Source: a virus. Taken from it: 64,000 nt of DNA. Shown here in pieces: positions 1 through 18,332 of this stretch (positions are counted from its first letter, which is position 1; each line of letters opens with the position of its first letter). A program made the translations under genes and the position numbers. The notes under the pieces were generated by a model. It saw only the letters and a list, made by a program, of their open reading frames with translations. It did no database searches and was not told the DNA's origin. Location: IMG/VR virus record IMGVR_UViG_3300028393_000035, positions 33,492 through 97,491 of that record. The stretch is one strand, 5' to 3'.

Positions 1-685
1 TTTGCGCATCAACTTCTTTAAGATTTTCAGCATTAGCAAAAACGCTAAGAACTTCATTAATGCTATCTGATTTTAAATTAGAGGGGGCAGGATCATTAGG
101 AACGACTGTAAACTCTTCAGTGTTATAATATCCATTCCTATTTGCATTAATATTAAAATTATAATTTAATATTTGATCTGTATGCTGATTAAAAATGTGT
201 TGATAATTTTCAATAATTCTTGTATTGTAACCAAGCGCTGATTTAGCGGCTAATCTCATTCCCTCAACTGTTGGTCCCAATCGTGCAGCATAAAAATAAT
301 CAATCGCTCTTTGTCTGTATGCTTCATCAAGAGATTTAATCAAAGCCCAAGAGTCAGCATCAAGAATGTTTTTTGAATTTTCTAAATACGATTCATCAAA
401 ATTTCTTGCAAATCGAAATGGGTTGCCGTACAATTTGTCAAGCTGATCAAAATTAAATCCATGTTCTTCTAATTGAAGTCGTGCATAAAAATAATTTAAC
501 TTTAAAAAGCTAACTCCAGCGGGACCAATTAAAGTATATAAAAATTTGTAAAGCCTAGAATCGGGCGAAGTATTAAAAACTTCTTCTGGAAAATTGTCTA
601 GATAACTAACAATGTTACCAGAGCTAGTTAATGCTTCAACTAAATACTGTTCATCTACTAGGGCATCATAAGTTGGTCTACTCAT
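1..685 (-). CDS. Baseplate wedge / P2 gpI-like tail protein (partial, runs off window)
   Basis: Not in ORF track. ATG at 685 overlaps the baseplate-J stop (ATGA). Reads MSRPTYDALVDEQ...LDKLYGNPFRFAR...DEAYRQRAIDYFYAARLGPTVEGMRLAA, matching the gpI-like D..YR.R......GPT..G pattern; lies directly after J. Confidence 0.7.
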   Translation of the reverse strand, partial: MSRPTYDALVDEQYLVEALTSSGNIVSYLDNFPEEVFNTSPDSRLYKFLYTLIGPAGVSFLKLNYFYARLQLEEHGFNFDQLDKLYGNPFRFARNFDESYLENSKNILDADSWALIKSLDEAYRQRAIDYFYAARLGPTVEGMRLAAKSALGYNTRIIENYQHIFNQHTDQILNYNFNINANRNGYYNTEEFTVVPNDPAPSNLKSDSINEVLSVFANAENLKEVDAQ

Positions 686-3600
686 AGTACGCTATTCCAA
701 GTATTTTGAGACTTAACCCTAATAGTCATAACCGATGATATGTCAGTGACTCCGCCAGATAACACTCCTTCCGGAAGGGCTGCAAGTTCGTCATCACCAA
801 TTTGAAAATCTTCATTATATGCGCCATAACCAGTATTAACATTTATTCCTACGACCGCTAATACGTCCTTATCGGTTTTACTATTATATGTAATTGTAAT
901 CGGATAATTAAATGATGGATCAACTTTAAAATCTACGGAACTTGAAGCAGTAATCAATGTATAATTACTATTCATTTTAGCCGTAAATCCAATTTTGTTT
1001 ACGGTGTCAACCTTCCAAGAGTTTGTATCGGTAGAAGGGTTGGCTCCAACATTGTTATCAACAAGAGATTGATAGTATGTAGATCCATACAATACAACAT
1101 CGTTCATTGAATAACTGAAATTTGCATCGTATATTTGAATTCTAAAATCATCAAATTCAATTACTTCAGGTTCATTTTTACCGTACTGAACTTTAAAATT
1201 ACTTACGACATAATTTTTGCTTATATTAGTTAAAGCTGTATTAATTGCTGGAGGAACTTCACCGGTTAAAGTTACAGATCCATCATCAATATATGAAAGT
1301 TCATCATAAATTTCATCTAGTAAAAGACTTCCACTTGTCCATGAATTAGATGTATTGCGATAAATTTTATAACCAGTGGCTTCATTAACTCTATCCCAAG
1401 TTAATTTAATTGACCTACTTGTTACCGATGGAGTCACAGTAACATAACTTGATGCAGTAGTTTGACCATTTGCATTAATTGCAGTAATTTTATAATAATA
1501 AGCCACATTTAGTAATGCGCCAGTGGAATATTCAACGGCAGTTAAATTACTTGGAGCAAGAAGACCGGTTGCGTCTTGTTTTGGCAAATATGGAAGGTAA
1601 AGATTATACTGCGTTGCCGTGCGACCATCTCCAATGTTAATCAAATCAAGTACTGGTTTACTAATCGATTGACCGTATTTATTTGTTTCAGTTAACCTAA
1701 CCCGTGAACTTTCAGTGTTATCGTACTCGGTTTTATTTTGATCTAATACGTCTTTAGACCAACGCACATTGTCAACTCCGCCAACGTTATGAATAGTTTG
1801 AATAATGTCTGATAATTGAATTTCATTTCCAAAATAAACATTGTCAAAATACCTCATTAAAGCAAGTCGAATTGATTCATTGACCGATGCTTTGTTAGCG
1901 CCAGTTGAATACATTACAGTAATATCGGGTTTAAAATATCTTACTTTGGCTTTATGAGCAAGAACGTCGGTAGTTACTTGTTTATTTGTTTCTAATAAAG
2001 ATTGAAGCGCGATAATATTACTATCATATTGATAATTATTAACATCGATAGAGGGATCAATAGTTGATAACAATAATGCAATGGTAGAATTGGCGTTATG
2101 CGAATTTACATAACTGCCATTTGCACCCCTGAGTTTAATTTGAAGCAGTGAACTTGGTTTATTTGGAAGCAAGGAGTATTGAATTTGCTCTGAATCTATA
2201 AGCAAGTAATCATTGTCAGGAAATTGCCTTGTTGTGGTTGACGCAACTTCCATCAAAACATTTACAATTGCACCAGAAGCAGTAATTGCAGCAGCCGTAG
2301 TTCCAAATTGCCCCCTATTGATGCCGGTAAATGTATTTGACGTTTTTGCACTGTAACTAATAATTTCACTGCCAATTAAAATATATCCTGAGGCTGGGAA
2401 TGGATCAGTTGAAGTAACTTTGATTGCAGTTAAGTTAGTAGCTGCTATGGTAACCAAAGTCACTTTGCCCGTATTAGCATCTCCGGTCAAAGTTCCAGTT
2501 ATACTGTACTTGATTGTACTACCGGCGGTTCCGGTAGTACAAACTGCTGAAGTTAAATTAAGTGCTGTACTTCCTGTAATTCCACTAATTTTAATTGTGT
2601 CGCCAACATTTAAATTATGAGCGGCTGAAGTTGTCAATGTGGCAGTGCCGTCCGTTGCTGACGAAGTTGATACTGATATTTGATTACCGGAATCAGAAGC
2701 ATTGGTAGTTGTTGATACGGCAGAAGAATTTGGCAACGCGGTTGCTAACGTAGCCATTGATAAAGAACTAGTGTTAATGTATGGACCTGTATATGGACCG
2801 CCGGTAACATCTCCTGAACCCTGCGACGGAATAGTTGTAGACCATTCAATGCCGTTCCTCGCCCTTATTGTTCCATTTAAATCTGTTACCTCTTCTACTA
2901 ACCAATAATGTTCATCTTTATTAAAAGTTCCATTACTTAAACTAATTTGATCTGGCAAATCGATAACTGGTTGATGATATAAAGGAGTTAATACATTTCC
3001 TTTAACGGGTCGCCTACCCGGCTCACCCATTCGTCTATAATTATCAATATAAAACGCGCTAGTCGTATCATCAGTAAATTGAAATGTTGGAACAGAACTT
3101 CCGGGACGAGGAATTGTTACATTGCCGGTCGTTGCATCCTCTCCATTAACGTAAACATCAACGCAATTTAAAATGTTTCGATCATAGTCATTGCGAGATG
3201 CTGTAGACATATAAGAATGTTCAAATAAAAGAACGTCGCCCGGAGCGATTGCGTTACTTGGACGGGTGCTAATATTGCCTATATAAACATTGGTAAATGT
3301 TATATTGGGTTGATACAATACTGGGGACTCAGTTGAGGTAGGATCAACCGTCCCAATATTGCGAGCGGCGTCACCCTTGTTTTTATCTTGAGGTAAGATG
3401 TTTAAAAGATAATCATAACCGGAAGTATAATAAATTGGCGACAAACCTGAATCATTAGCAACAAAATATGGTAAATTATCATAAATATGTTTCGAATTAT
3501 TATTATTTGATAAATTAGTTGTAAATTGATGAATTTTATCAGATGGACCATTGCCTCCCGACGTTGTATCAGAAACGCTGGGAACTTGAATGTATTCGCT

Positions 3601-4284
3601 ATATTTAGAAATTGGACCGACGACATTTGCTTTCTTTGATTTAGTCGAAAGCGCAAGTGATAAAAATTGATCTTTGGTACCAGCGAGGTTTCTAAAAGGA
3701 CCGGCGGTAGTAAACCTTGCTTTAAGTTCAGTGTCTGACTCGCTATCTGTTCCACCGGTAATTGGGTATTCGTTATTTACCGCAGTAATGCCATAAACGG
3801 GCGCTCCAACTGTTTCAGTAATAGTATTTGCAGCCACATTACCAATGATGCCGCCTTGAATAGCTTCAATAGGGGCAATAACTTCAGTAGTTCCGGCCTG
3901 CAATGTTACAGTTGTGGTAGTTCTAAATACTACGCTTGTATTTCCATCACCACCATTAGGGGTAAAGACTGTGGTGCCAGATCGAATAATAACTGGATTT
4001 GTTGTAGCGGTTTCTCTTGAAAATGTTACGTAACCCGTTGCGCGATTACCAGCTTGACGACCAAATCCAAGAATGGCCAGCATATTGTCAAGATCAGTTC
4101 CAAATTTTGCATCAATATCAAATGCCCCATTTAACACATTAAGATCGACTTGAGCATCTGCTATTGCTTGCGCAACAGTATCAATAATCCTACGCTCTGG
4201 GGTTCCCACTTCCGCAGAAATAGAAGGATCAAGCGCCCTTAATTGGGTAATCATACTTTGTGAAATTTGATCTTGTGTAGCCAT
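682..4284 (-). CDS. Baseplate J-like wedge protein with inserted beta-modules
   Basis: LDNMLAILGFGRQAGNRATGYVTF, GNVAANTIT and GGTDSESDTELKARF motifs; C-terminal SDIIQTIHNVGGVDNV. Confidence 0.9.
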   Translation of the reverse strand: MATQDQISQSMITQLRALDPSISAEVGTPERRIIDTVAQAIADAQVDLNVLNGAFDIDAKFGTDLDNMLAILGFGRQAGNRATGYVTFSRETATTNPVIIRSGTTVFTPNGGDGNTSVVFRTTTTVTLQAGTTEVIAPIEAIQGGIIGNVAANTITETVGAPVYGITAVNNEYPITGGTDSESDTELKARFTTAGPFRNLAGTKDQFLSLALSTKSKKANVVGPISKYSEYIQVPSVSDTTSGGNGPSDKIHQFTTNLSNNNNSKHIYDNLPYFVANDSGLSPIYYTSGYDYLLNILPQDKNKGDAARNIGTVDPTSTESPVLYQPNITFTNVYIGNISTRPSNAIAPGDVLLFEHSYMSTASRNDYDRNILNCVDVYVNGEDATTGNVTIPRPGSSVPTFQFTDDTTSAFYIDNYRRMGEPGRRPVKGNVLTPLYHQPVIDLPDQISLSNGTFNKDEHYWLVEEVTDLNGTIRARNGIEWSTTIPSQGSGDVTGGPYTGPYINTSSLSMATLATALPNSSAVSTTTNASDSGNQISVSTSSATDGTATLTTSAAHNLNVGDTIKISGITGSTALNLTSAVCTTGTAGSTIKYSITGTLTGDANTGKVTLVTIAATNLTAIKVTSTDPFPASGYILIGSEIISYSAKTSNTFTGINRGQFGTTAAAITASGAIVNVLMEVASTTTRQFPDNDYLLIDSEQIQYSLLPNKPSSLLQIKLRGANGSYVNSHNANSTIALLLSTIDPSIDVNNYQYDSNIIALQSLLETNKQVTTDVLAHKAKVRYFKPDITVMYSTGANKASVNESIRLALMRYFDNVYFGNEIQLSDIIQTIHNVGGVDNVRWSKDVLDQNKTEYDNTESSRVRLTETNKYGQSISKPVLDLINIGDGRTATQYNLYLPYLPKQDATGLLAPSNLTAVEYSTGALLNVAYYYKITAINANGQTTASSYVTVTPSVTSRSIKLTWDRVNEATGYKIYRNTSNSWTSGSLLLDEIYDELSYIDDGSVTLTGEVPPAINTALTNISKNYVVSNFKVQYGKNEPEVIEFDDFRIQIYDANFSYSMNDVVLYGSTYYQSLVDNNVGANPSTDTNSWKVDTVNKIGFTAKMNSNYTLITASSSVDFKVDPSFNYPITITYNSKTDKDVLAVVGINVNTGYGAYNEDFQIGDDELAALPEGVLSGGVTDISSVMTIRVKSQNTWNSVL

Positions 4285-4285
4285 A

Positions 4286-4735
4286 TTATAAAGATACTGA
4301 TAGTTTTATTGGATAAGCTTCGGGGTTTGCTTTTGCAGTTATGAAATTAATTTCAACATTAGCAGCGGTTAAATTTTGCTCTAATTTAGTAATTTGAAAA
4401 TCTATTACTACTTCTCTGGCAGTTAAAGTTGCCTTACCAAATGACATTTTATCTACTTTGGCTCTTGATAATTGACGAGCTTTATAACGATTGACAACTG
4501 CTGCTATTTCTGTTTCAATTTGTAAATGTAAATCGTTAAGAGAATTTGGCGTAGTTCCTATAATTTTATTTTCTAAACTACTGCCGTAATTTTCATTGAA
4601 TCGATTAGATCCTCTTTTTTCAAGTAATTCGCATTTAATATCTTGCATTAATTTTTGTTCATTGGCAACTTTGGCAAGGCCTTTGCTGCCAAGGGCTAAA
4701 TCACCGTCTTCTGTTAATCCTATGCTCCAAGTCAT
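4286..4735 (-). CDS. Baseplate wedge protein, gp25/gpW-like
   Basis: DGDL...QDIKCELLEKRGSNRFNENYGSSL pattern; directly upstream of J. Confidence 0.8.
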   Translation of the reverse strand: MTWSIGLTEDGDLALGSKGLAKVANEQKLMQDIKCELLEKRGSNRFNENYGSSLENKIIGTTPNSLNDLHLQIETEIAAVVNRYKARQLSRAKVDKMSFGKATLTAREVVIDFQITKLEQNLTAANVEINFITAKANPEAYPIKLSVSL

Positions 4736-4762
4736 ATCTATATATTACATGATAGAAGTTGG

Positions 4763-5266
4763 TTAACCTACAGCGCTCCAACCAATATTTGATTCGCCAG
4801 ATGTTTTTGCATACAAGGTGCTTCCTGCCGCACCATCTTTTCTAAGAAATAAACTACCAATCGGTGCTGTAGTAACGCCCTCAGGACCTCCGGTTCCTAT
4901 AACAATCTTAATCGACCCAACTTCAATTACATTAGTTTTATCTATTGTTACCAAAGATGATCCGCTAGGAGTCTTAATAACTTCAGCCGCAACCTTGGCT
5001 TCTCCGGGAGCTAAATGCACAACTTGAGTGTCATCAACATTATCAAATTTAGTATCAAGTTTCCAATACCCTCCATCTTGACGGACGATCCAATATTCAC
5101 CTTCTTTGGGCCAAACAAAAAATGATGGAACGTCAAATAATGAAATTTGAATATTACCTCCGTCTTTTAATTGAGCTTCAATTTTGCGGGTATCCGTATG
5201 CACTGTATGAATTCGCGCAGAATGCCTAGGACCAAACGCAGGATTAATATGATTGCGAATTGACAT
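4763..5266 (-). CDS. Putative baseplate spike/gpV-like protein
   Basis: Lies between hub and gp25-like genes; OB-like N-terminus (WPKEGEYWIV); C-terminal GTGGPEGVTTAPIGSLFLRKDG tail-protein motif. Confidence 0.5.
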   Translation of the reverse strand: MSIRNHINPAFGPRHSARIHTVHTDTRKIEAQLKDGGNIQISLFDVPSFFVWPKEGEYWIVRQDGGYWKLDTKFDNVDDTQVVHLAPGEAKVAAEVIKTPSGSSLVTIDKTNVIEVGSIKIVIGTGGPEGVTTAPIGSLFLRKDGAAGSTLYAKTSGESNIGWSAVG

Positions 5267-5269
5267 TAT

Positions 5270-6772
5270 TTATTTCTTATCCGATTTAGATGGATCTTTA
5301 TCCGTTGCATCTTTAAATGTACCAACGGCATCTGTAGTAGGCCAAGCTCTAATCATTCCTGCATGAACCCAAGATTTATCTGGATCTGCTGGAGTCCCGT
5401 CTCCATTTTTATATGCCGCAGGAGCCATTAACTCCGCTGTAGTGGTGAAACCATTTTCATACGAGCAGTTATGAGTCACAGAACTGACATAGCACTGCAA
5501 TCCATGTTCGGGAAACGCTACGATACCGCCGGGAAAAAGCTCGGGCATAAATGTAAATTGAAATTGAGTTTTAAATTGTTGAGACCAATATAAACAAAAT
5601 TTTTGATATGCTAAAAATGCTTCATAAATTGGTGCCCTAACCATAGGGGCTGGCTCATAATGCGGTCTTGCTCCGTATTTGCGCAAAAAGTTAATTGCAT
5701 CTTCTTGTTTAACAAGCGTCGGATATTTTTTAGGATCTACGCCTTTAAGATCACCTTTTGCATCTACGCCATTAAGAAAGTCGGCCATAAAAGCATTGAA
5801 TACACTAACCACTCCGCCTGTATTTATTTTATCATAAACATCTACGTTGCCACTACCACTGGCCGCACCAGATGGAGGTCCAACAATATCTCCAACTACA
5901 TAAACGTGAGTATATAATTCATCATCTGATAATTCGATGCTGCCACTAATAATTTCAATATCTTCAATAAACCAATAAGGAGTTTTTCCTAAACCGCCAA
6001 AGTAATCTGGGTAAAAAGCAAAAAAGTCTCCACTCGGAGTGGACATGAACTGCCTTAGACAAGCCATGGACAATTGCTGAATAAAAGGCATTAGAGGAGT
6101 ATCATTCATTAAACTTCTTTGACCAGTTAATGAATTTGATTCTATTGTGCTAACGAATCCGGGCATAGAAAAAAATGTTGAATAAGCAGCAGCTTTAGCA
6201 ATTGCCCCAACGTCAATGGTTTCTCCGCTTGGTTGAGTACCGGGTAAAATTGTTTGATCCGTTGGAGTACCAGTAGGATCACTAGCAATTGGATTACCGT
6301 TTTCGTCTGCATTGCCAAGTGAAAAATCTACAAATTTTCTTGGGGAAACGGCTCCGTTTGTTGTAGGTTCACCGCCTAGTGCAAACTCAGGTTTCATAAC
6401 TACGCGAACCCGATTACTTTGAGTAACCCATCCTTCGGAAACGCCTTTATTAACCGGTTTCCATTGTCCGTCACCAAGATTTACACTTGACGAAATGGGA
6501 CCCAAAGCAATACTGTCGTTTTCTTTAAAAATACCAATGGTTTCTTTAAATTGAAGGATCAGTGTTCTTTCATTGGCGTTATTCATGCCCCAAGTCCATC
6601 GAGATTTAACTGGGGCGCTGATGGTAATGGTACCATTGCTAATACCATAAATTTGACTTTTCATTAATCCATGGGCTGCGCTTTGATTTCCATACTCAGT
6701 AATTGTATGTAAACCAGATGAAGTTGCATTTGGAAATATTGGTGCTGGTTTTTTAGCTTGTGATCCGGGCAT
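5270..6772 (-). CDS. Baseplate hub, C-terminal half
   Basis: gpD/gp27-like C-terminal signatures (LYTHVYVVG, KYGAR, FMPELFPGGIV, YVSSVTH...GFTTTAEL); position after the three hub N-half paralogues. Confidence 0.65.
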   Translation of the reverse strand: MPGSQAKKPAPIFPNATSSGLHTITEYGNQSAAHGLMKSQIYGISNGTITISAPVKSRWTWGMNNANERTLILQFKETIGIFKENDSIALGPISSSVNLGDGQWKPVNKGVSEGWVTQSNRVRVVMKPEFALGGEPTTNGAVSPRKFVDFSLGNADENGNPIASDPTGTPTDQTILPGTQPSGETIDVGAIAKAAAYSTFFSMPGFVSTIESNSLTGQRSLMNDTPLMPFIQQLSMACLRQFMSTPSGDFFAFYPDYFGGLGKTPYWFIEDIEIISGSIELSDDELYTHVYVVGDIVGPPSGAASGSGNVDVYDKINTGGVVSVFNAFMADFLNGVDAKGDLKGVDPKKYPTLVKQEDAINFLRKYGARPHYEPAPMVRAPIYEAFLAYQKFCLYWSQQFKTQFQFTFMPELFPGGIVAFPEHGLQCYVSSVTHNCSYENGFTTTAELMAPAAYKNGDGTPADPDKSWVHAGMIRAWPTTDAVGTFKDATDKDPSKSDKK

Positions 6773-6826
6773 GATTAAACTACCTTTACTTGTCTTTTAT
6801 TAATTGAGCGATATTGAAACATTTGA

Positions 6827-7966
6827 TTAATCAACTAATCTAATTTCCACATTACCCGTACCGTCTTGGGTAAAGTTTAAAGCATCCGCAGCGTCTCTCC
6901 ATAAATCAATAGCTCTATTGGGACTGCCGCTTCCGTATCCTCTATCGGTTTTTGATGCAATAATAGATTTTCCTTTGTATCTAATTTCGACTTTTGTAAA
7001 CATTGGCAATTCGCCAGATCGACCAAAAAGAGCAGCCATGTAACCTTGATTGGTAGCCAAACCATTACTTGTTGCAGTACCCAACTCTGCATAATTATAA
7101 AGCCCACCGGGAGCATTACCCAATTTTCCTGACGCTCCGGGAGGTGGATCATCAAACCAAGAGGCCTCTGTTGTCTTCCATCCTGACCCCCCAGTTGAAG
7201 GTTGAGCGGCACCTCCGCCTCCTCCACTTGTTGTAGTTGAAGTTGAAAATTTACCATAATCACCACGACCAATAATTTCTCTGACAAATTTGGCAACTTC
7301 TTCGTTAATGTTTGAGTTATCTTTTTTGAATTCATCAAAAAGGTTTCCAACAACTTTTTCTATGTTACGAGGAAGTGATTGAATGTAAATATTATCATTG
7401 TTCCAACCGCCAATTTCATTAAGAACTCCATAAAGAAGATTACCAATACTGGAATCATTTAATCTATTAACTTTATTAATTTTTTGATTATCAGTATCTG
7501 CCGTACCAGCTTTACCATTAGACTTATCTAAGTTCCAACCGTAAGCTTTCATAAAATCGTTTACAAAAGAAAGTCCCGGATCAAAGTAAGTGTAATTTAA
7601 TCGCTTTAATGTACAAGAAGCTTTAATTTTGGCGGTCCCCGGAAACAATTGAACATCGGGAGTTGTGTCGCAATAACCTGTAAATACCTGAATGGGCTTG
7701 CCCGCAATTCTTTCAAGGATAATTGTTATCGGATCCATTGGATGAAAAACGGGAAGAACTTTGCCATCAGCTTCGCGTTCTGTAAACAAGAACCTAGGTT
7801 TATTGTCTTTAAGTACTTTTGGATTGCGAAATTCTAATTCAGCCGTACTGATGTTATCAATGACTCTGTAAACGTCACATTTGATTATGTACGGACTTAA
7901 ATCGACTATGCCAGAGTCAGTTTTGATCCAAGCTTTGATTGATGGAGAGTAAACTAATCTTTTCAT
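6827..7966 (-). CDS. Hub N-half paralogue 3 + RlpA-like DPBB (lytic transglycosylase-like) domain
   Basis: Shared MKRLVYSPS... N-terminus; C-terminus EASWF...LPMFTKVEI...DRG...RAIDL..AA.AL matches RlpA/DPBB. Confidence 0.75.
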   Translation of the reverse strand: MKRLVYSPSIKAWIKTDSGIVDLSPYIIKCDVYRVIDNISTAELEFRNPKVLKDNKPRFLFTEREADGKVLPVFHPMDPITIILERIAGKPIQVFTGYCDTTPDVQLFPGTAKIKASCTLKRLNYTYFDPGLSFVNDFMKAYGWNLDKSNGKAGTADTDNQKINKVNRLNDSSIGNLLYGVLNEIGGWNNDNIYIQSLPRNIEKVVGNLFDEFKKDNSNINEEVAKFVREIIGRGDYGKFSTSTTTSGGGGGAAQPSTGGSGWKTTEASWFDDPPPGASGKLGNAPGGLYNYAELGTATSNGLATNQGYMAALFGRSGELPMFTKVEIRYKGKSIIASKTDRGYGSGSPNRAIDLWRDAADALNFTQDGTGNVEIRLVD

Positions 7967-9244
7967 TTAAAAACCTTGAATGTGTCTAGGTGTAAATCCT
8001 TCTGTTGTATGTGCATGCCACCATACAGTGTGCCCAGCGGGTGCGCTACTAGCAGTTCCAACAAATCTATTAGCAGCATCCGAATTGGCTAATTCAAAAA
8101 ATACATGGCCACTGGGTCCAGCAGGCCCCTTTGTCCAAACAGTAAGATACTGTCCTCTACCCGGCTCTCCCCAAGTTAAAAATTCATCAGAGCTTGGAGC
8201 GTAATTAAAACCTAATTTACCAATAAAATGAAGCATATAAGATACAAAGCTAGAGCAGTCAAACATTAAAGCACCGTCGCCGTCTACAGGAGGATTATTA
8301 AGATAATTGCCCTCTCTTTCACTACTAGCTCCTCCCGGTATATCGCCATCTCCACCAGAAACGTATCTTGTTTTGGCAGAAACAATTCTGTCAACTTCAG
8401 CTTTCCAACGTCTAATTAGATCTGGAGCCTGCGACGGTAAGACTGGAGTAGGACCTGCGGCAGTACTAGAATCTGCAAGTGGTTGAGTAGACAATTGTCC
8501 GTATCCACCACTACCAATAATACCCTTGACAAATTTGGCAACTTCCTCGTTGACTTTAGAATTGTCTTTTTTAAATTCATCAAAAAGATTTCCAACGACT
8601 TTGGCTATGTTGCCGGGGATCGGTTGAATATAAATATTATTGTTATTCCATCCGCCAATTTCATTAAGCGCAGCATAAAGTAAATTGCCAATACTGGAAT
8701 CATGTAATTGAACTGATGAAGTTGGCACTTGTTTTGGATTTTCATCTTTTGTTGCTTGTTTTTCATTAACCGCAGTACCATTAGATACATTAATTATCCA
8801 ACCATAATTGCGCATAAAATCTTGTACAAAATTTAATCCCGGATCAAAGTAGGTGTAGTTTAATCTTTTTAAAGTGCAAGACGCTTTGATACGAGCGGTA
8901 CCCGGAAATAACTGTACATATGGAGTTGTGTCACAATAGCCAGTAAAAACCTGAATGGGTTTACCCGCAATACGTTCAAGTACAATAGTTATTGGATCCA
9001 TAGGATGAAAAACCGGTCTTATTGAAGTGCTACCATCTGAACCCGTATATTCGTTTTCAGTAAACAAAAATCTTGGTTTACCATTTTTAAGCACTTTTGG
9101 ATTACGAAATTGAATTTCAGCATTGCTAAGGTCATCAACTTTTCTTACAACCGTGCATTCGGTTACATATGGACTCAAATCAATAACCCCCGAGTCTGTT
9201 TTTACCCAAACCTTGATTGACGGGGAGTAAGCTAATCTTTTCAT
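7967..9244 (-). CDS. Hub N-half paralogue 2 + NlpC/P60 peptidase
   Basis: Shared N-terminus; C-terminal FDCSSFVS...GHVFFE Cys-His dyad. Confidence 0.8.
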   Translation of the reverse strand: MKRLAYSPSIKVWVKTDSGVIDLSPYVTECTVVRKVDDLSNAEIQFRNPKVLKNGKPRFLFTENEYTGSDGSTSIRPVFHPMDPITIVLERIAGKPIQVFTGYCDTTPYVQLFPGTARIKASCTLKRLNYTYFDPGLNFVQDFMRNYGWIINVSNGTAVNEKQATKDENPKQVPTSSVQLHDSSIGNLLYAALNEIGGWNNNNIYIQPIPGNIAKVVGNLFDEFKKDNSKVNEEVAKFVKGIIGSGGYGQLSTQPLADSSTAAGPTPVLPSQAPDLIRRWKAEVDRIVSAKTRYVSGGDGDIPGGASSEREGNYLNNPPVDGDGALMFDCSSFVSYMLHFIGKLGFNYAPSSDEFLTWGEPGRGQYLTVWTKGPAGPSGHVFFELANSDAANRFVGTASSAPAGHTVWWHAHTTEGFTPRHIQGF

Positions 9245-11109
9245 TACTGCCCGCCTTGAATCGCTTTTGCTTTATTTATAATTTTATTTATCGGCAGGTT
9301 TCCCGGACAGTCTGGATGATCTCCGCCTCTTGATCCTAATTCGCCGTGTCCACAAATTCCATTTGTTGTAGACCTAACAAGCGGAATGTTAAATTTAGTA
9401 GACCAATAGGCAACCCATTGAGCAGATTTATTAATTTGCGCATCTGTAAATGCAGATACACTTTGACTTGCATATCCTATATGCTCAATTCCTAATGAAT
9501 CTTTTGATCTATACCCGCAATGATGAGCTTGATTTTGATCATTAACAAAGCGAGCAGAGTTACCTTCATTATCAACTCCAACATGAACGGAAATTCCTCG
9601 ATTTGGTATGCCGTGCGCAGTCGCCCAATCACTTCTTCTCATTAATCCATCTTTCAAGTTTCGCAAATCTGCCGTTCCAGCAATATTATCAGTTTGAGTA
9701 ACATGCAAAACAATAATTTTTGGATTATTATTTGATTCCCAATAATTTAAACCGTCTCCATTTTGAGGAATTGGAAGACTTATATGCTCAGGCTCTGAAC
9801 CCGGATTAGAAGCTGTTGCAACAGGTCTTAATGTGTTAACAACATCTGCAATAGTTTTTGCAAATACTAACTTGCCATGAGTAGTTGGATGAGGCTGATT
9901 ATTTGGATCAATTTCTGCTTTTGAAGCCCAATCAGCAATTGACAAATTAGAATGTTTTGAATGTGCTTCTCTAATTGCTTCATTAACATGATTATTAGTT
10001 GTTACAGTAACAAAAACTGCTTTTCGATTAGATCCAATATTAGCCATCGCTTTATCAATAGATCTTAAAAAGGTAGCTTTAGAATTATCTTCATCGTTTG
10101 TACCAAGTGCAACAATAACTATTCCGCCAAGAGATAATTTATTATTTTTTAAGATTTTTAATCCAGAATCTCCGCCCATAGTCGAAGATCCATAACCATC
10201 TGGACCCCATGCCATATGTTTTGAATTTTCTGCATAAATAGTAATTCCCGGCATTGCAGCTTCAAGTTCGGTTCTACTCATGTTAGTAATACTGTCTCCA
10301 ACCATGGTTACTCCTGTTCCAGTAACGCCGTTAGAATCAGTGCTATTGCTAAGTAATTTACCGTAATCTCCATTGCCAATAATTTCTCTAACGAATTTGG
10401 CAATTTCTTCGTTAACGTTTTTATTATCTTTGGCAAATTCATCAAAAAGTTTTCCTACTATTTGAGATATGTTATTAGGAAGTGATTGAATATAAATATT
10501 GTCATTGTTCCAACCACCAATTTCGTTTAATACGGCATAAAGTAAATACCCAATGCTAGAATCATTTACATTGGTTGATTTAACAGCTTTACTGATTTGA
10601 GAATCTGTGATGACACTGGCAGTACCGCTATTTCCTGCCCCGCCTTTTTTAACAACTCCATTTCCTCCTAATTGCCAACCATATTGACTCATAAAATCCA
10701 TAACAAAAGGAAGTCCCGGATCAAAATATGTATAGTTTAATCGTTTAAGTGTGCAAGAAGCAGTTAACCGCGCAGTACCCGGAAATAGTTGAACATATGG
10801 AACGGTATCGCAGTAACCAGTAAAAACCTGAATGGGTTTACCTGCTATGCGTTCAAAGATGACTGTTATTGGATCCATTGGATGGAAAACTGGCCCAATG
10901 TTTCCATCTTTTTGAACTCTTTGAGTAAACAAAAATCTTGGTTTTCCATCTTGTAAAACTTTGGGATTGCGAAATACAACGTCTAAAGAACTAAGATCGT
11001 TTACTTTACGCTGAACCCTGCACTCTGTAATGTGAGGACTTAAATCAACAACACCAAAGTCTGTTTTTACCCAAATCTTTACTGATGGGCTATACACTAG
11101 TCTTTTCAC
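9244..11109 (-). CDS. Hub N-half paralogue 1 + SGNH hydrolase + amidase_2
   Basis: Shared N-terminus (GTG start). SGNH blocks VGDSIT, LGTND, QPHPT; amidase motifs IVLHVT, SVHVGVD, SLGIEH, GHGEL..HPDCPG. Confidence 0.8.
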   Translation of the reverse strand: MKRLVYSPSVKIWVKTDFGVVDLSPHITECRVQRKVNDLSSLDVVFRNPKVLQDGKPRFLFTQRVQKDGNIGPVFHPMDPITVIFERIAGKPIQVFTGYCDTVPYVQLFPGTARLTASCTLKRLNYTYFDPGLPFVMDFMSQYGWQLGGNGVVKKGGAGNSGTASVITDSQISKAVKSTNVNDSSIGYLLYAVLNEIGGWNNDNIYIQSLPNNISQIVGKLFDEFAKDNKNVNEEIAKFVREIIGNGDYGKLLSNSTDSNGVTGTGVTMVGDSITNMSRTELEAAMPGITIYAENSKHMAWGPDGYGSSTMGGDSGLKILKNNKLSLGGIVIVALGTNDEDNSKATFLRSIDKAMANIGSNRKAVFVTVTTNNHVNEAIREAHSKHSNLSIADWASKAEIDPNNQPHPTTHGKLVFAKTIADVVNTLRPVATASNPGSEPEHISLPIPQNGDGLNYWESNNNPKIIVLHVTQTDNIAGTADLRNLKDGLMRRSDWATAHGIPNRGISVHVGVDNEGNSARFVNDQNQAHHCGYRSKDSLGIEHIGYASQSVSAFTDAQINKSAQWVAYWSTKFNIPLVRSTTNGICGHGELGSRGGDHPDCPGNLPINKIINKAKAIQGGQ

Positions 11110-11114
11110 GATAA

Positions 11115-12029
11115 TTAATTTCCGTTTGCGTCTGTTAAATCAAATTGACTATTAATTCCAATTTGTACACCATTTCCACGATGGTTGATTTGTGCGCCCG
11201 TAAAAGCTGTATCTGATATGCCACCGTTTGCGCTAATGTGCTTACCATTACTGATGGCATCGTTATATTGACCCTGAAGAATATTTTTTCTAATTTGAGC
11301 GCCATTTTTTGCTCCAAAGTCATCCTTGCGAAAAAGAGTCATCCAGTCCGTAATTTTAGATCCTGAACTTAAATCATTACCAAAAATGCCTTTATTTCCA
11401 TCGGATTGGGCAATAACAAAATCAATGGTAAATTGAGGAGCAAAATTAAATTTAGTTCCGCCAGCAGCAATAGACTTAATGTAACCCTCTAATTGCATAC
11501 CCTTTCTTGCACCCTTTTGATTTCTGGGTCGTCCCTCTACAGACCGTGGATTCATAATTAATGTTACGGTAGGAAGGGGAATTGTTGAATCGTCGCCATA
11601 ATGTTTTAAATAAAGATTTGATTTTTCACTGGCATTTGATTGAGGTCGTATATCACCATTCACATTTAAAGCTTCTGAATGAGATTCTCTAACAAAAGCG
11701 GCTAATTTGTTATACTCTCTTTGATTTGGCATTATTCCAGCCATTTTTAAAATAGGTTGATCAAATGAATGAGGGTAAAATTCTCTTTTCCAACGACTTT
11801 GACCAGTGCTACCAGTCATAGAAAAATCAATTGAAGCTTCTTCTACCCAAAGGTTCAAGTATTTATTATTTGTTTTAATAAGTCGAACGGTCCAATTATC
11901 TAATTTATTAGGATCGACATCGGGCGTACTAACTGCATATCCTGTGTCAACTCTAGGACCAGCTTGCCTATTTAATTTAGCTGCATTCTCAGCAGAATAA
12001 GGAATGGGATCAATTGGATTATTAGCCAT
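11115..12029 (-). CDS. Tail/baseplate protein (tube-initiator-like)
   Basis: Start moved to MANNPIDP (12029) because the longer ORF overlaps the upstream gene by about 300 nt; position between tape measure and hub. Confidence 0.55.
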   Translation of the reverse strand: MANNPIDPIPYSAENAAKLNRQAGPRVDTGYAVSTPDVDPNKLDNWTVRLIKTNNKYLNLWVEEASIDFSMTGSTGQSRWKREFYPHSFDQPILKMAGIMPNQREYNKLAAFVRESHSEALNVNGDIRPQSNASEKSNLYLKHYGDDSTIPLPTVTLIMNPRSVEGRPRNQKGARKGMQLEGYIKSIAAGGTKFNFAPQFTIDFVIAQSDGNKGIFGNDLSSGSKITDWMTLFRKDDFGAKNGAQIRKNILQGQYNDAISNGKHISANGGISDTAFTGAQINHRGNGVQIGINSQFDLTDANGN

Positions 12030-12810
12030 TATTTTTATTGTCCTCAGATGGAGCTTTTCCATCACCGTTTTTACCGTTTCCAGTATTTTGAAACGCAGCG
12101 TTATATGCAGGTTTAGACCAATTGGCTCCCAATGCCTCCGTTGCTGCTGCACCGCTTGAACCGGGAAGCCAAGATTTAATAAACGAGTTATATGGGCCAT
12201 TTGCACCACTAAGCTCGCTATAATAATCTTGAGTTGCGCCAGCCTTATAAGCCTTGCCCGTGTTAGGAGTTGTCCAAGGGTTAAATTGATGAAATCCGAT
12301 ACGAGCCGTAGCGGTTCCAAAAGGTTTAAAACTAGGATCATCGACTTGAGCTTGAGCTTCTGTTTTAATTAACTGCTCAAAACTTTCTGGACTTTCAACA
12401 ACTGCCGCGCTAATACTCCAAGTAGGAGCAACGACATCTTTACCATACCTAAATCCGGGCGCTGATTTAGGTTGAATAAGAAATTTCCAACCGCGAGCTG
12501 GATATTCAAAAGTAACAGGTGTGGTATCATAAGCCTGTGTTTTACCCTGAGTGGCAAGCTGCATGTAGGAAACAAACCATTGATAAATTGTTTCCATTTT
12601 ACTGTATGATGAAATGGTTCCTGTGATGGTCATGTCCTCAATAAACATTGAAAGAATTTGAACAACTTCGCCGCCAAAAGTTTGATAATTTTGAGTATTT
12701 AATCCATAAGACCAAACAATAGAATCAGGGTTGACTGATAATTTTAAATCAGGCAAAGCTTGAGTTGGATGAGAAAATATAATTTTTGCAGTATTAGCCA
12801 TTATTATCAC
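12022..12810 (-). CDS. Tail tube initiator/baseplate protein
   Basis: VNPDSIVWSY...TFGGEVVQ...MTITG pattern; immediately after tape measure. Confidence 0.6.
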   Translation of the reverse strand: MIIMANTAKIIFSHPTQALPDLKLSVNPDSIVWSYGLNTQNYQTFGGEVVQILSMFIEDMTITGTISSYSKMETIYQWFVSYMQLATQGKTQAYDTTPVTFEYPARGWKFLIQPKSAPGFRYGKDVVAPTWSISAAVVESPESFEQLIKTEAQAQVDDPSFKPFGTATARIGFHQFNPWTTPNTGKAYKAGATQDYYSELSGANGPYNSFIKSWLPGSSGAAATEALGANWSKPAYNAAFQNTGNGKNGDGKAPSEDNKNNG

Positions 12811-14681
12811 GTATTATTTTTTCCGCCGCCGTCTTTTCCTTGAGCGTCCTTAAGTCCCCTAGCAGCTTGCGCAGCAGTGTCTAATGAATTAACCAATTTA
12901 TCAAAATTGTCTCTAGATATGTCTTGTTTATTATCTGGTCCGCGAGCTTTGTCTAAATCTCTTAATAATTTCTTTTCCCAATCAGCATTTAATATCCAAT
13001 CGTGTCCTCCGCGTCTGCGATCTTTAGCAACTCCGGAGGTTACCAAATCCCTTTTAATTTCCTCCATTTGCTTAGGATCTTTGATTCCTGCACTCTTAAG
13101 AATTTTATTAATTTCGCTCTCGTTGGCCTGCTTTCCAGACACTGCGGGTAAATCATACCAACTTCCAGAATGAGTTTTAATACCTTTAACATTTGCAATT
13201 ATTTCGCCGTTTTTATTTTTATTAAAATATTTTGATTCTGCTTTATCAATTGCAGATCTTTGCGGCGCATAATCAATAACATTTTTTATTTCTTCGGGCG
13301 AATAACCTTGAAAACCATAAAGATTAATCATATCACTAATTGCTAATTCTCCGGGTTTAGAATTTAAAAATTTGGAATTAACCTGTCCAATGGATTTACC
13401 AGTTAAATTTTGAAAAACAGATCCCATGGCGGATGTTAAAGCCCGTTGTTGTTCCGAAGGGGACATAGCGCCAGCTTGATAAGGCATGTAACCCATTTTC
13501 ATAACTTGCTGTTGCGCCATGGGGTTATTCATTAGCGTTTGCAAATTTTTTGTAGGATCTATTCCCGGCATTGTGCGAGCCAATTCCGCTCCTTGAGGAA
13601 TTGAATAAGCGGACGATACGCCTGATTGCCCTGCAAGTTGAGCATATGCTCCAAGTTGCTGTGTTAATTGTTCAGTCGAAACATTTGCACCTGCTGCTAC
13701 TGCGTTAAGATTATTAATAGTGCGAGTCAAATGAGCCACTTCATTTACGTTTCCAAATCGCAAAGTTTGATCTAATAGCGCACCCGCCTGCTGAGGTCTA
13801 ATTGAAGGATTAAAACGAGTAATGTTTTCTAATGCCATTTCACCTGTTTTAAATTGATTATTATTAAAATTAAATCCCATTCCCATTAAAGTGTTATCTA
13901 TTTCTGCCATTTGCTGCATATTAACGCCAGATCGAACAGCCTGACCCATTTGATGAAACTTCATATCCAACCCTTTTTCAAAAGCGCTATTAAAAGGATT
14001 TCTAAAACCAAACCCTCCAATTTCAATATTGCCGCCTACTTCACCACCAATTTGAGTTGCCCCATAATTTGATAAACCCTGCATGGCGCGATAAGTAGGT
14101 TGAACGTATTGCTGAAACATCTTTTTGCCAGCTTCGTAATTAGGAATGACCTCATTGGCAAAAAAGTTTGCTCTGCGGCCAGATCGTATATATGCTTTTT
14201 GCTCATCACTATCTGGCTCAGCCCTAGCCGCCTTTTCTAAATTTCTAAGCATTGCTGCTTTAGCTAAGTTTTGAGCAGTAATTCCGCCTTTTAATGGACC
14301 AAAGCTAGGAGGAATAGTATAATATTGTTGACCAAAAACGTCTTCAAAGGGTTTATCGCCGCGCAAACCGGCTCCAACTCTACCCAAAAGGCTTTTAGCA
14401 TCTGAAGCATGCTTGGATGGTCCATCACCAGCGCTTACCGGAGCATCTGGTGCTGTTGCCTCTTCCCACCTTTTCCAACTAATATCTTCTGCTTGCTTAG
14501 CTCTTTTTTCATATCCAAAGGTACTGGCACGACTACTAGTTAAATCATCAAACCTTTTTCTTTCACTGCTCTCAGTAAACCGTGCAATTAGGTTATCTAA
14601 CTCAGGGCCGCCCAAAGCCTGTTTAAGTCCCCTTTCAACGGCGGCTGCAATTTCATCAATATTTGGATTATCTTCGGGCAT
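12807..14681 (-). CDS. Putative tape measure protein
   Basis: Helical Ala/Gly/Gln-rich 624-aa protein downstream of the tail chaperones. Confidence 0.6.
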   Translation of the reverse strand: MPEDNPNIDEIAAAVERGLKQALGGPELDNLIARFTESSERKRFDDLTSSRASTFGYEKRAKQAEDISWKRWEEATAPDAPVSAGDGPSKHASDAKSLLGRVGAGLRGDKPFEDVFGQQYYTIPPSFGPLKGGITAQNLAKAAMLRNLEKAARAEPDSDEQKAYIRSGRRANFFANEVIPNYEAGKKMFQQYVQPTYRAMQGLSNYGATQIGGEVGGNIEIGGFGFRNPFNSAFEKGLDMKFHQMGQAVRSGVNMQQMAEIDNTLMGMGFNFNNNQFKTGEMALENITRFNPSIRPQQAGALLDQTLRFGNVNEVAHLTRTINNLNAVAAGANVSTEQLTQQLGAYAQLAGQSGVSSAYSIPQGAELARTMPGIDPTKNLQTLMNNPMAQQQVMKMGYMPYQAGAMSPSEQQRALTSAMGSVFQNLTGKSIGQVNSKFLNSKPGELAISDMINLYGFQGYSPEEIKNVIDYAPQRSAIDKAESKYFNKNKNGEIIANVKGIKTHSGSWYDLPAVSGKQANESEINKILKSAGIKDPKQMEEIKRDLVTSGVAKDRRRGGHDWILNADWEKKLLRDLDKARGPDNKQDISRDNFDKLVNSLDTAAQAARGLKDAQGKDGGGKNNT

Positions 14682-15047: not shown

Positions 15048-15258
15048 CCCCAACTTGTTTAAGTTCACGCATTAATTTATTAAAATCAGACGTACTATCT
15101 GGAACAACATGCTCTAATTCCTCTTCAGGGGCGTATTGAGCCTCTTCTCCAAATAGTTTACTATACAGTTGAGGGTTATTAGCAAATACGTTATTTTTTA
15201 ATTCATCTTCTCTTAATTCATGTTGCATTTGCTCATCGCGCTGCATCATATACATCAT
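15037..15258 (-). CDS. Tail assembly chaperone T portion (expressed as G-T fusion via -1 frameshift)
   Basis: This frame is open from the slippery heptamer at 15393-15399 to the stop at 15037. Confidence 0.75.
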   Translation of the reverse strand: MMYMMQRDEQMQHELREDELKNNVFANNPQLYSKLFGEEAQYAPEEELEHVVPDSTSDFNKLMRELKQVGVID

Positions 15259-15800
15259 GAGTCTGCGTTGAACGGAATTAAGTCCTCCGGACCTTCCTCC
15301 AGATAATCCATTATCTCCGCTTCCGATGTTGAATCGGCCCTCTTTATCGAGGAGTCGGGCGAGGCCATAAAGGAAATCCGACCCTCTTTCGATAAATTTT
15401 CCATTTCTCTTAAAATGGATTCTTGTCTTTCTATTAATTCTACATATTTCATATAAATGTAATTAATGGTAGGTTCATACCAATTCTTGCTTACATACTG
15501 AAATCTTGCTCTAGCAAAATCCTTCTTATTAGGACCAGCTTGAGGACAAAAGTCTTCATTTCCGTCAACAGAAATTAATGCCATACCAACTTGAGCAGCG
15601 ACCCAAGCCTTGGCCTGAGAGATAGAATCTTTGTAGTCCTTAGCTGCATAACCTGCAACCATTTCATCTTCAAGTTTTAATGTGCGAATCACAAATTCGT
15701 GACCGCAAAACTCAAAAGAATCTTCTAAAAACCCTAGCCATAAAAGACCATCAACGTCATCAGCGACTTCATCAGGGAAGCCGTCATTACTTTCCATCAT
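15255..15800 (-). CDS. Tail assembly chaperone G
   Basis: Between tube and tape measure; contains A-AAT-TTA slippery site. Confidence 0.8.
   Translation of the reverse strand: MMESNDGFPDEVADDVDGLLWLGFLEDSFEFCGHEFVIRTLKLEDEMVAGYAAKDYKDSISQAKAWVAAQVGMALISVDGNEDFCPQAGPNKKDFARARFQYVSKNWYEPTINYIYMKYVELIERQESILREMENLSKEGRISFMASPDSSIKRADSTSEAEIMDYLEEGPEDLIPFNADS
15393..15399 (-). other. Programmed -1 frameshift heptamer A AAT TTA
   Basis: XXXYYYZ heptamer in the correct frame (GAA AAT TTA); -1 frame open into the downstream ORF. Confidence 0.75.
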
Positions 15801-15860: not shown

Positions 15861-16478
15861 TTAAGTAAATGACGTAGTTGTTGAGTTACTGACTCCACCA
15901 AGATTGGCAGATCTAGTACCATCAACAACAGGGTTAACTCCACCGCGAGTCATGTAAGTGTAATTAACAGAAATTTGCTTAATGATTTCCATTGTACCGA
16001 CAGAGATACGCTCACCATCAATAACATTAGAAATAACGCAGTTGTGATATTCTTCTGTATAAGGAGCCATTTTCTTGCCGCGAATTGCAGGTGGGCGAAC
16101 ATACTTAACGATACGGATAGGATTAGGAGTATTAGCTACTGCACGGAAGATTCCAACAATATCAACTGGACCCTTGCCAGTACCAGTAATTTTAGAATCG
16201 CCACCAAGATAAGATGCAAGGCGTTCCCAAACCTGCGCTCCATAAAGTTCATAAAGCTCAAGAGTAATCTGACCCATATTAGCAGCCTGAGGAGTAATAA
16301 GCTCAACAGGATAAGGCTCATCCATTGGGTGAATTGGCACGGTAGGAGCGACTGGAGTAGGAGAGGTATGCTCAATCTGCTGAGCAAAAAGAATTGGCTT
16401 GTTTTCCCATGTGAAAACGGTAAAACCTGAGCCTGCTACTCTTGCGCGATTTTGTGCTCCATTAAGTGGTCCAGCCAT
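15861..16478 (-). CDS. Tail tube protein
   Basis: Follows sheath; size and beta-rich pattern (GQITLELYE, YHNCVI, ISVNYT). Confidence 0.8.
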   Translation of the reverse strand: MAGPLNGAQNRARVAGSGFTVFTWENKPILFAQQIEHTSPTPVAPTVPIHPMDEPYPVELITPQAANMGQITLELYELYGAQVWERLASYLGGDSKITGTGKGPVDIVGIFRAVANTPNPIRIVKYVRPPAIRGKKMAPYTEEYHNCVISNVIDGERISVGTMEIIKQISVNYTYMTRGGVNPVVDGTRSANLGGVSNSTTTSFT

Positions 16479-16481
16479 TTA

Positions 16482-18332
16482 TTATGCTCCTATATTTGTT
16501 TGGTTAGTCGTGGTAACCGAAGTAATTCCACTAGTTAAGTCAACGGCAAACTTGATATTTACATAATTAACTGCAAACGCTGGACGATAATTAAATCTAA
16601 TGCCGATTTGTGTAGGATCAATAGAATCAAACTGACCCTGAACCGAATCAAATTGAACAATAACGCCGTCATCTTGAAGAGTTCTAAGTGTTGATGCAAT
16701 AGTGGTAGCAATTGTAAGAGGTGCAGAATCGTCAGCAATAGTGCTACCAATAACTTGAGTATCAATTGTTTGACGAAGAGACCTGATCATGTAATGCTTT
16801 GCACGAATTGCATTAAGCTCTGCCTTGGCAACTGAAGTTTTATCAGTTGTTAGAGCGTGACGAACAAAGATTGAATTGTCATTTTTATTTTGTTCAATAA
16901 CAAAGAGTCCTACGCCTGAATCTTGAGTCTTCTGTGGCTTTGTGCTAGTGTCAACTATCTTCTTAAATCCAGCCAAAGTTTTTCTTGTCAAAGAAATTTG
17001 AGGTTCATAAGAAACAACCTTGCCTGCAACTGCTGCGGCTGCATACTGACCACCAAGAATTACTGAGGTGGTTGCGCTAGCTGTTGATGGGCGCTCAAAT
17101 TTAGTTTGAGCAATAAATACCATGCGCTCATTGAAACTTGTATTATTAGAAGTATATGCTTGAAGGCTTATTAGATGACTTCTAACAGTGTCTCTGCTTG
17201 CATAAGTGCTGCCCGATGGAGGATTGGTTGAATCTTCACCAATCACACCAATGATGAGTTGATCATAGTTTGAATCCATAAAGGCGATGTGACCTTGCAA
17301 GGACTGAAAAATATTTAATTGCGCCGTATCATTTAAAACTGAAGAGCTTCCAGTTCCATAATTGTAAGTTGCATTTTGTCCAATAACTGGAACAATGATT
17401 CCAATGTTTTCTTCATTTTGAAGCGCTCTAAACGTCTTGTTCCATGTGTTTGATGTATTTATACTGTCACTATTAGCTGGCTGAGTACGAGTAGGCATTG
17501 GACCAGTAATATCCTCAGTGTTATAAAAAAGTGGCTGAAGTACAAGGTCTTGAGCGCCATTTTCAATAGCAATCTTTGCAGCTAAAGTCAGTGGAGAGTT
17601 GACGGTCACTCCATCATCTGCAATTGCCTTACCAAAACGAGTTTCAATGTTTGAAAAATCGTTTCCAGATACATAATAAGGTGTAAAATAATCTGATGGT
17701 GTGTATGTATATGTTACATATACTTGACGATTATCAGGAATGACAAAACCGTATTTAACTTGAGAGCTAGCCGCTGTATGAACAGCCGCCGTAGTATTAT
17801 TTGCTCCGCGAGTTAAACCAGTAAATGTAATTGTACCGGCATTTAAAGTTGCAGAAGTGTACTGAATTTGTTCGTTATCTACGATAACCGCTCCGCCCGT
17901 GCTGGGGAAAGGACTTAACACAGAGGCGGTAGCCGTCATTGTAGTTGCGGTTGCGCTTAGTGTTGTGTCTGCAAGGGGAATGGAAGTAACCGATGCAACG
18001 CGAGCAATGGTGTGATCTGTAGCATTAAAAGTATAAGAACCCGGAATGTATCCACCGTTTGAAGTATAAGCCGCATTTGAACTTTGGGCGCTACTTGAAT
18101 CATAATCAGCTACAAATGTAATGCTTGTTGGGGTCATTAAATCTGTCGCTTTGACTCCTTTAAGCGAAGACGCTGTAGTACCGCTTAAAGTTACGGCTTC
18201 AGTGACTGTTACGCTACCACTAGCGGGTCCAACAAGGCAAAGTAAGTCGGGCGTAGCAATAATTGGGTTGATACCAGCCTGAGTAGTCTCAGTGATGGTT
18301 ACGCCGGGTGGTCTAATGTAAGCTCTGGCCAT
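16482..18332 (-). CDS. Tail sheath protein
   Basis: YIRPPGVTITE N-terminus; VRHALTT...ELN and YRPAFAVNYVNIKF C-terminal sheath motifs. Confidence 0.92.
   Translation of the reverse strand: MARAYIRPPGVTITETTQAGINPIIATPDLLCLVGPASGSVTVTEAVTLSGTTASSLKGVKATDLMTPTSITFVADYDSSSAQSSNAAYTSNGGYIPGSYTFNATDHTIARVASVTSIPLADTTLSATATTMTATASVLSPFPSTGGAVIVDNEQIQYTSATLNAGTITFTGLTRGANNTTAAVHTAASSQVKYGFVIPDNRQVYVTYTYTPSDYFTPYYVSGNDFSNIETRFGKAIADDGVTVNSPLTLAAKIAIENGAQDLVLQPLFYNTEDITGPMPTRTQPANSDSINTSNTWNKTFRALQNEENIGIIVPVIGQNATYNYGTGSSSVLNDTAQLNIFQSLQGHIAFMDSNYDQLIIGVIGEDSTNPPSGSTYASRDTVRSHLISLQAYTSNNTSFNERMVFIAQTKFERPSTASATTSVILGGQYAAAAVAGKVVSYEPQISLTRKTLAGFKKIVDTSTKPQKTQDSGVGLFVIEQNKNDNSIFVRHALTTDKTSVAKAELNAIRAKHYMIRSLRQTIDTQVIGSTIADDSAPLTIATTIASTLRTLQDDGVIVQFDSVQGQFDSIDPTQIGIRFNYRPAFAVNYVNIKFAVDLTSGITSVTTTNQTNIGA

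Follow-up and report, generated by a model that had tools for sequence, protein, structure and literature searches.

Central baseplate hubs of the T4 gp27–gp5, Mu gp44 and P2 gpD type share one four-domain fold and are unsplit. In T4 it is the spike protein gp5, and not the hub, that bears the lysozyme; hub proteins that themselves carry one wall hydrolase are also known. The hub of Staphylococcus phage 812/K (9euf chain E) is a single chain that forms a homotrimer and has one enzyme type at its C terminus. In gp27-type hubs three subunits build a ring of alternating barrel domains I and III, with domains II and IV beneath; in phage 812, for which such trimers are established, the hub stays at the tip of the tube, and its CHAP domain cuts peptidoglycan (PMC13433997). 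Closest in sequence to the locus described here is the hub of cluster C-type actinophages (PHROG 2810; Mycobacterium phage Myrna gp132, 963 amino acids (aa); Gordonia phage Skog gp186), one chain of ~800–1,300 aa encoded once per genome, with a hydrolase module between homologous N- and C-blocks. Here we analyse a 64,000-nucleotide (nt) stretch, hereafter the window, of the IMG/VR viral record IMGVR_UViG_3300028393_000035, in which this hub is very probably divided between genes: three paralogous N-halves (N1, N2 and N3), each followed by cargo other than that of Myrna and Skog, and one C-half. The source contig is 97.5 kb long (completeness estimate 61%, GC content ~0.39 around the hub genes) and, to judge from its genes, is that of an uncultured actinophage-like myovirus with a contractile tail, kin of the cluster C actinophages.

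The nearest functional analogue lies in type VI secretion systems (T6SS), where VgrG paralogues are gp27-fold subunits with different enzymatic cargo that could meet in one trimeric tip. Specialised VgrG paralogues, whose effector domains differ, may assemble as homotrimers or as heterotrimers (PMC10433429), and Serratia VgrG1 and VgrG2 do not mix (PMC4924876). VgrGs are whole chains in direct mutual contact, whereas the variable subunits of the window would be half-hubs sharing one common partner. No sequence relationship between VgrG and the window hub was detected beyond the fold.

The four genes encode complementary parts of one predicted hub fold

We are highly confident that the N-block common to N1–N3 and the C-terminal 290 aa of the C-half are complementary parts of one gp27/gp44-type hub. 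PHROG 2810, a 952-position family of virion structural proteins of the single-chain Myrna gp132 type, matches N1, N2 and N3 over profile positions 47–266 (E values 1e-35 to 5e-30) and the C-half (P0004 residues 171–453) over positions 651–920 (E value 2.5e-55). In Myrna and Skog a single gene of ~960 aa holds both halves; in the window the matching blocks lie on separate open reading frames (ORFs), not on one polypeptide. None of the four proteins gave a meaningful match in single-sequence searches of PDB sequences.

AlphaFold models of N2 and the C-half, built from alignments of 110 and 78 relatives, respectively, had mean predicted local distance difference test (pLDDT) values of 79 and 70, with the hub parts mostly above 85 and residues 1–125 of N2 mostly above 90. 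Residues 1–210 of the N2 model align with 3d37 (Z 9.4, root mean square deviation (r.m.s.d.) 4.5, 120 aligned), and the model also aligns with residues 1–201 of the phage 812 hub (9euf_E; Z 8.8, r.m.s.d. 3.8, 140 aligned). It covers the starts of other hubs as well: residues 3–130 of Mu gp44 (9ki1_G), 5–134 of VgrG1 and 4–180 of T4 gp27. Its tube-like β-barrel, corresponding to domain I, matched the HFTV1 tail protein with a VIA Z score of 9.6 (r.m.s.d. 2.2, 93 aligned) and the pyocin R2 hub with one of 8.7. Residues 199–453 of the C-half model take up the later ranges of the same proteins, namely Mu gp44 103–337 (Z 8.3, r.m.s.d. 4.9, 182 aligned), T4 gp27 122–365 (Z 7.5), VgrG1 107–350 and the phage 812 hub 221–621 (Z 8.6), and Foldseek matched the C-half to many hubs (E values 3e-6 to 8e-4, probability 1.0). 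In these models, domain I of the gp27/Mu gp44/VgrG-N fold falls in N2, and domains II–IV, including the second barrel (domain III), fall in the C-half. Taken over Mu gp44, T4 gp27 and VgrG, the N2 model corresponds to hub residues 1–135 and the C-half model to residues 103–340. The structural case rests on the PHROG profile and on this agreement, which extends in complementary ranges over dozens of phage, pyocin, extracellular contractile injection system and T6SS hubs.

When the N-block was predicted in complex with C-half residues 185–500 (1N:1C), the pair passed with a score of 0.71, whereas the best of three controls had 0.00; among solved complexes 58 of 80 attain this mark, and among mismatched pairs 2 of 110 do. 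Runs shared at least 75% of their contacts, partner pLDDT was at least 64, and N-block strand 27–37 pairs with C-half strand 430–439 in the model. Both partners come from a single fold that has solved relatives, and custom alignments were used, so the pass may reflect likeness and is no proof of binding. Positions at the predicted N–C interface are more often invariant across the three paralogues (73%) than those elsewhere in the N-block (54%; p 0.01). That the two parts map to complementary halves of one hub fold had been proposed in an original prediction made from the sequence of the window, and the family profile, the structure alignments and the complex prediction all bear it out.

The split layout is kept in one clade of uncultured phages

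We scanned 80 viral and 79 metagenome loci with hidden Markov models of the N- and C-blocks. At ~60 distinct loci there is one fused ORF, 730–1,300 aa long, and 223–224 records of the deposited phage library match, each in one place under one gene. Among the sequences searched, a single fused gene with the enzyme in between is the common state of the family; the original prediction had named this form, and it is real. Because every matching deposited record has one fused gene, the split multi-copy layout is so far confined to uncultured phages. Three N-halves with one C-half (3N+1C) are found in the window and in eight uncultured loci besides (L004/L084, L005, L006, L007, L008, L009 and L087). 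Other split loci are 1N+1C (L010 and L090), 2N+2C (L091) and 2N+3C (L011), and in L015 a split copy adjoins a fused copy. The 3N+1C loci and L010 form one clade in the C-block tree (support 96/99), as do the split N-blocks in the N-block tree (97/97), and C-blocks within the 3N+1C clade have diverged to path lengths of ~0.8–0.9. Relatives thus show the layout routinely within one clade, though not across the wider family. A megablast search of phages with the region was without a match, and our literature searches turned up no account of an actinophage hub that is split or has paralogues.

Several of these loci have peculiarities of their own. In L015 (5455–10972; = L098), the split hub (N 393 aa, C 515 aa) stands directly upstream of a complete fused hub of 935 aa; because the blocks of this phage, N as well as C, have their nearest relatives in one another, it represents an independent duplication and split. 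L011 (7540–14333; = L093) has two N-halves and then three C-halves, with overlaps all of 1–4 nt. By BLAST to M23-bearing relatives, two of these C-halves have M23-type N-terminal domains and the third an NlpC/P60-like one that is homologous to the cargo of N2 in the window. The close relatives L006 and L007 have their first two paralogues in opposite order. One N-half of L007 (6285–7025, 246 aa) is without an enzyme domain, and its L006 orthologue (7291–8448) carries an SLT domain.

The N-halves are old duplicates under purifying selection

The original prediction had described three abutting genes with a shared N-block and divergent C termini, and a fourth gene without this block. The ORFs lie exactly where it placed them and contain the motifs it quoted. 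The shared block spans 245–260 aa, with pairwise identities of 65–70% in amino acids and 68–71% in nucleotides, and is absent from the C-half gene. A Ser/Thr/Gly-rich linker of low confidence follows (pLDDT below 50 at N2 residues 244–268), beyond which the paralogues are unrelated. For every pair the ratio of non-synonymous to synonymous substitution rates (dN/dS) is ~0.18, with dS saturated (1.2–1.5), so the duplicates are old and all three are under purifying selection. The non-synonymous proportion (pN) peaks at codons 135–195, in variable loops specific to each paralogue. Recent gene conversion among the window paralogues is ruled out by the dS values and by a longest identical nucleotide run of 26; the same values contradict the idea that high nucleotide identity has been kept among the copies.

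L004 has one-to-one orthologues of N1–N3 with 86–91% N-block identity, yet its N1 cargo is amidase and SLT as against SGNH and amidase in the window. Across the 3N+1C clade, N-blocks cluster by genome lineage and not by cargo (the starred clades of the N-block tree). At the shallowest level, approximately unbiased tests of cargo-based N-block orthology among the window, L004 and L005 gave p 0.09 and 0.016, for groups named after the tree was seen. Grouping by lineage points to older homogenisation, co-evolution with the C-half of each lineage, or swapping of cargo.

Gene spacing sets the C-half apart

N1 shares 1 nt with N2, which in turn abuts N3. In the window and all eight other 3N+1C loci, the N genes abut or overlap and the C gene is preceded by its own spacer of 18–62 nt with a Shine-Dalgarno-like motif. 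None of the five other split loci has such a spacer; there N and C genes overlap at their junctions, with 1 nt in common in the 1N+1C, 2N+2C and 2N+3C loci and 16 nt in L015, where the start was not refined. As its sequence reads, the spacer of the window uncouples translation of the C-half from that of N3, and a read-through fusion of N3 to the C-half is ruled out by its in-frame TAA TAA. The spacing is a hint that fits equal amounts of each N-half with a separately set, higher amount of the C-half. It is weakened as evidence by being one inherited trait of one clade.

The halves carry different predicted wall-degrading modules

Whereas the phage 812 enzyme is C-terminal, the cargo of the window lies at the insertion site in domain II. 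The enzyme calls of the original prediction fare unequally. The Amidase_2 assignment of N1 is solid (PF01510, E value 1e-15, 58.7 bits against a gathering cut-off of 26, profile positions 2–130 of 131). The middle domain of N1 is a putative SGNH/GDSL hydrolase on weaker grounds: Lipase_GDSL_2 matches it at E 0.064, its translation contains GDS and GTND motifs, and a homologue (P0072) matches at 4.8e-5 (24.4 bits against a cut-off of 32.9). A role as de-O-acetylase is conceivable for it. The cargo of N2 had no Pfam match, either in the whole protein or as a segment. A profile of seven homologous N2-type domains matched RipB (3pbi, E value 2e-4), followed by a tail of weak NlpC/P60 matches; D-C-S and a His are invariant among these domains, and one homologue carries Amidase_5. 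This profile and the invariant residues point to a putative NlpC/P60-type (C40) peptidase, which would be an endopeptidase, although the domain folded poorly (pLDDT below 50 at residues 347–425) and its fold model is unusable. In N3, DPBB_1 scored 25.7 bits for the whole protein and 29.2 bits for the segment against a Pfam gathering cut-off of 28.8, and TIGR00413 (rlpA) matched at E 3e-4, far under the family cut-off, making the assignment as a DPBB/RlpA-like putative transglycosylase borderline.

A further domain, missed by the original prediction, opens the C-half. Residues 7–160 take up an M23/LytM fold in the model (lysostaphin 4qpb, Z 10.6, r.m.s.d. 2.7, 123 aligned; phi29 gp13, Z 10.1), with no Pfam match. 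Every HxxxD and HxH position is substituted, whereas relatives with a Pfam M23 match keep both motifs. As modelled, the domain is an M23-like pseudo-enzyme, with metal and catalytic residues both lost, and is probably a remnant that serves in binding or structure. BLAST finds the same enzyme types on the C termini of N-halves and on the N termini of C-halves among relatives; the gene therefore appears to have been cut on either side of the ancestral insert. Stand-alone C-halves of 450–570 aa number in the hundreds, several per contig (as on contigs of 38,669, 47,309 and 166,534 bp), and their N termini bear M23, Amidase_2, NlpC/P60 or Amidase_5.

Genomic context of the hub genes

The features of the locus are listed in Table 1. 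On the minus strand, tail sheath, tube and chaperone are followed by the tape-measure position, two small proteins, the four hub genes, a 167-aa protein, the gp25-like protein and Baseplate_J. Within this contractile tail module the hub genes thus have the tape-measure position on one side and the gp25/J wedge genes on the other, matching the order in Myrna and Skog.

Table 1. Hub genes of the window, their domains and neighbouring tail genes (window positions).
Feature	Position	Strand	Description
N1	9244–11109	−	621 aa, GTG start; hub N-half, putative SGNH esterase, Amidase_2
N1 hub N-half	10306–11109	−	residues ~1–268
N1 putative SGNH esterase	9790–10305	−	residues ~269–440
N1 Amidase_2	9301–9732	−	residues 460–603
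N2	7967–9244	−	425 aa; hub N-half, NlpC/P60-type cysteine peptidase domain
N2 hub N-half	8462–9244	−	residues 1–261
N2 NlpC/P60-type domain	7970–8461	−	residues ~262–425
N3	6827–7966	−	379 aa; hub N-half, DPBB/RlpA-like domain
N3 hub N-half	7211–7966	−	residues 1–252
N3 DPBB/RlpA-like domain	6842–7042	−	residues ~309–375
N3–C spacer	6773–6826	−	54 nt; AAAGG Shine-Dalgarno-like motif; in-frame TAA TAA
C-half	5270–6772	−	500 aa; degenerate M23/LytM-fold domain, disordered linker, hub domains II–IV
C-half M23/LytM-fold domain	6293–6754	−	residues 7–160
C-half hub domains II–IV	5336–6214	−	residues 187–479
Candidate central spike	4763–5266	−	167 aa, directly downstream of C-half
gp25-like baseplate protein	4286–4735	−	phrog_2669, E value 2e-13
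Baseplate_J wedge protein	682–4284	−	1200 aa
Protein in tape-measure position	12807–14681	−	624 aa; no family match
phrog_2786 protein	12022–12810	−	family match
Protein upstream of N1	11115 to ~12030	−	
Tail sheath	16482–18332	−	
Tube	15861–16478	−	
Chaperone	15255–15800	−	

Upstream of N1, a 408-aa ORF (11115–12341, minus strand) overlaps the phrog_2786 gene by 320 nt. Translation of this ORF probably starts in truth at an internal ATG opening MANNPIDP, giving ~300 aa; the L004 orthologue (4733–5656) has 307 aa. Only residues 3–224 of the Baseplate_J protein form the J domain, the remainder being a long C-terminal extension. The gene directly after the C-half encodes 167 aa in the window and 574 aa in the close relative L004 (11495–13219). 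Leads for the 167-aa protein are weak (Atlas 0.76 to gp45-like and puncturing-spike clusters; phrog_2952 at the N terminus, E value 3e-4), and it may be a central spike with a variable C-terminal extension.

Assembly of the split hub

The window thus very probably holds a split hub with a triplicated N-half, of the central baseplate hub fold (T4 gp27/Mu gp44/VgrG-N). Taking this together with mixed occupancy of the N positions, we favour the following account with modest confidence. The hub gene would have been split at the site where relatives hold an inserted peptidoglycan hydrolase, leaving the tube-like domain I and part of domain II in the N-half and the rest of domain II with domains III and IV in the C-half. 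The two halves would reassemble non-covalently, and a trimeric hub incorporated into the virion would then present an N-C-N-C-N-C ring in which each N-half contacts C-halves only. Each N copy would keep the C-binding surface and tether its own wall-degrading module by a flexible linker: a putative SGNH esterase with an amidase, a putative NlpC/P60 endopeptidase, or a DPBB RlpA-like putative transglycosylase. Any N-paralogue probably fits any of the three N positions, and hubs would on average present all cargo types. Mixed assembly is favoured because relatives differ in copy number, each lineage has homogenised its N-blocks and C-binding positions are conserved; and, because N-halves should touch only C-halves, there is no evident basis for ordering the paralogues. 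Several points weigh against this account. The VIA Z scores of 7–9.6 lie in a range that the tool itself calls middling; the SGNH, NlpC/P60 and DPBB scores are at or under the Pfam cut-offs; the trimer and the N–C alternation are carried over from homologous structures; the phage is uncultured and the case comes from genes and models; and an ordered heterotrimer would account equally well for the constancy of three N-halves in a clade that has diverged.

Such an ordered ring, the pseudo-threefold N1+N2+N3 assembly put forward in the original prediction, would be a heterohexamer, N1-C-N2-C-N3-C, in which each hub has exactly one N1, N2 and N3 and three C-halves. We regard it as a live minority reading, unlikely on balance. 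Exactly three N-halves are kept in nine of nine clade members despite the divergence of their C-blocks, all three copies are under purifying selection, and abutting or overlapping N genes with an uncoupled C gene fit equimolar synthesis of the N-halves. If it were true, every virion would carry one esterase/amidase, one endopeptidase and one transglycosylase-like module round the tube tip, a symmetry-broken, division-of-labour cell-wall drill whose stoichiometry would come from the abutting N genes (if translationally coupled) and the separately initiated C gene. As first stated, however, it is unsupported: relatives have one to three N-halves and one to three C-halves, in 1N+1C, 2N+2C and 2N+3C layouts, so that three is not obligatory. 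The grouping of N-blocks by lineage and not by cargo speaks against position-specific specialisation, L007 keeps an enzyme-free N-half, and N–N contacts would not be expected in the ring (by extension from PMC13433997).

The original prediction had also offered mixed virion populations with different tips. Mixing within hubs fits better than the ordered trimer, but sorting into virion subpopulations is less likely than either. With one N-paralogue per virion, three subpopulations would hedge bets against different wall chemotypes; the sequence is compatible with this, including the paralogue-specific variable loops, but N-halves that touch only a shared C-half would have no mechanism of self-sorting, and their abutting and overlapping genes suggest one message. 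We judge this improbable. Slightly more improbable still is that only one N-half is structural, the other two being either soluble enzymes of lysis or assembly or else duplicates in decay with a retained N-block. Myrna gp132 was annotated as LysA, which would suit such enzymes. The low dN/dS in all pairs, the preferential conservation of predicted C-binding positions, the highly similar one-to-one orthologues in L004 and the retention of the layout in eight further loci all stand against it.

Implications for tail-tip diversity

Hub proteins with one wall hydrolase were known already; a hub broken into duplicated, probably interchangeable half-subunits would differ from them. The host is probably a low-GC freshwater actinobacterium, to go by the actinophage kinship, the GC content and contig names that we take to be of lake type. 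Because it is confined to uncultured, probably freshwater, phages, the layout is missed by annotation-based surveys. Mixed assembly on a shared partner would be combinatorial, a different design principle by which one tail tip could display several bond specificities. It would illustrate a way in which phages whose hosts have thick walls broaden their means of breaching them, with cargo easily swapped at one insertion site, and the half-hub pair could serve as a natural scaffold for the display of enzymes on tail tips.

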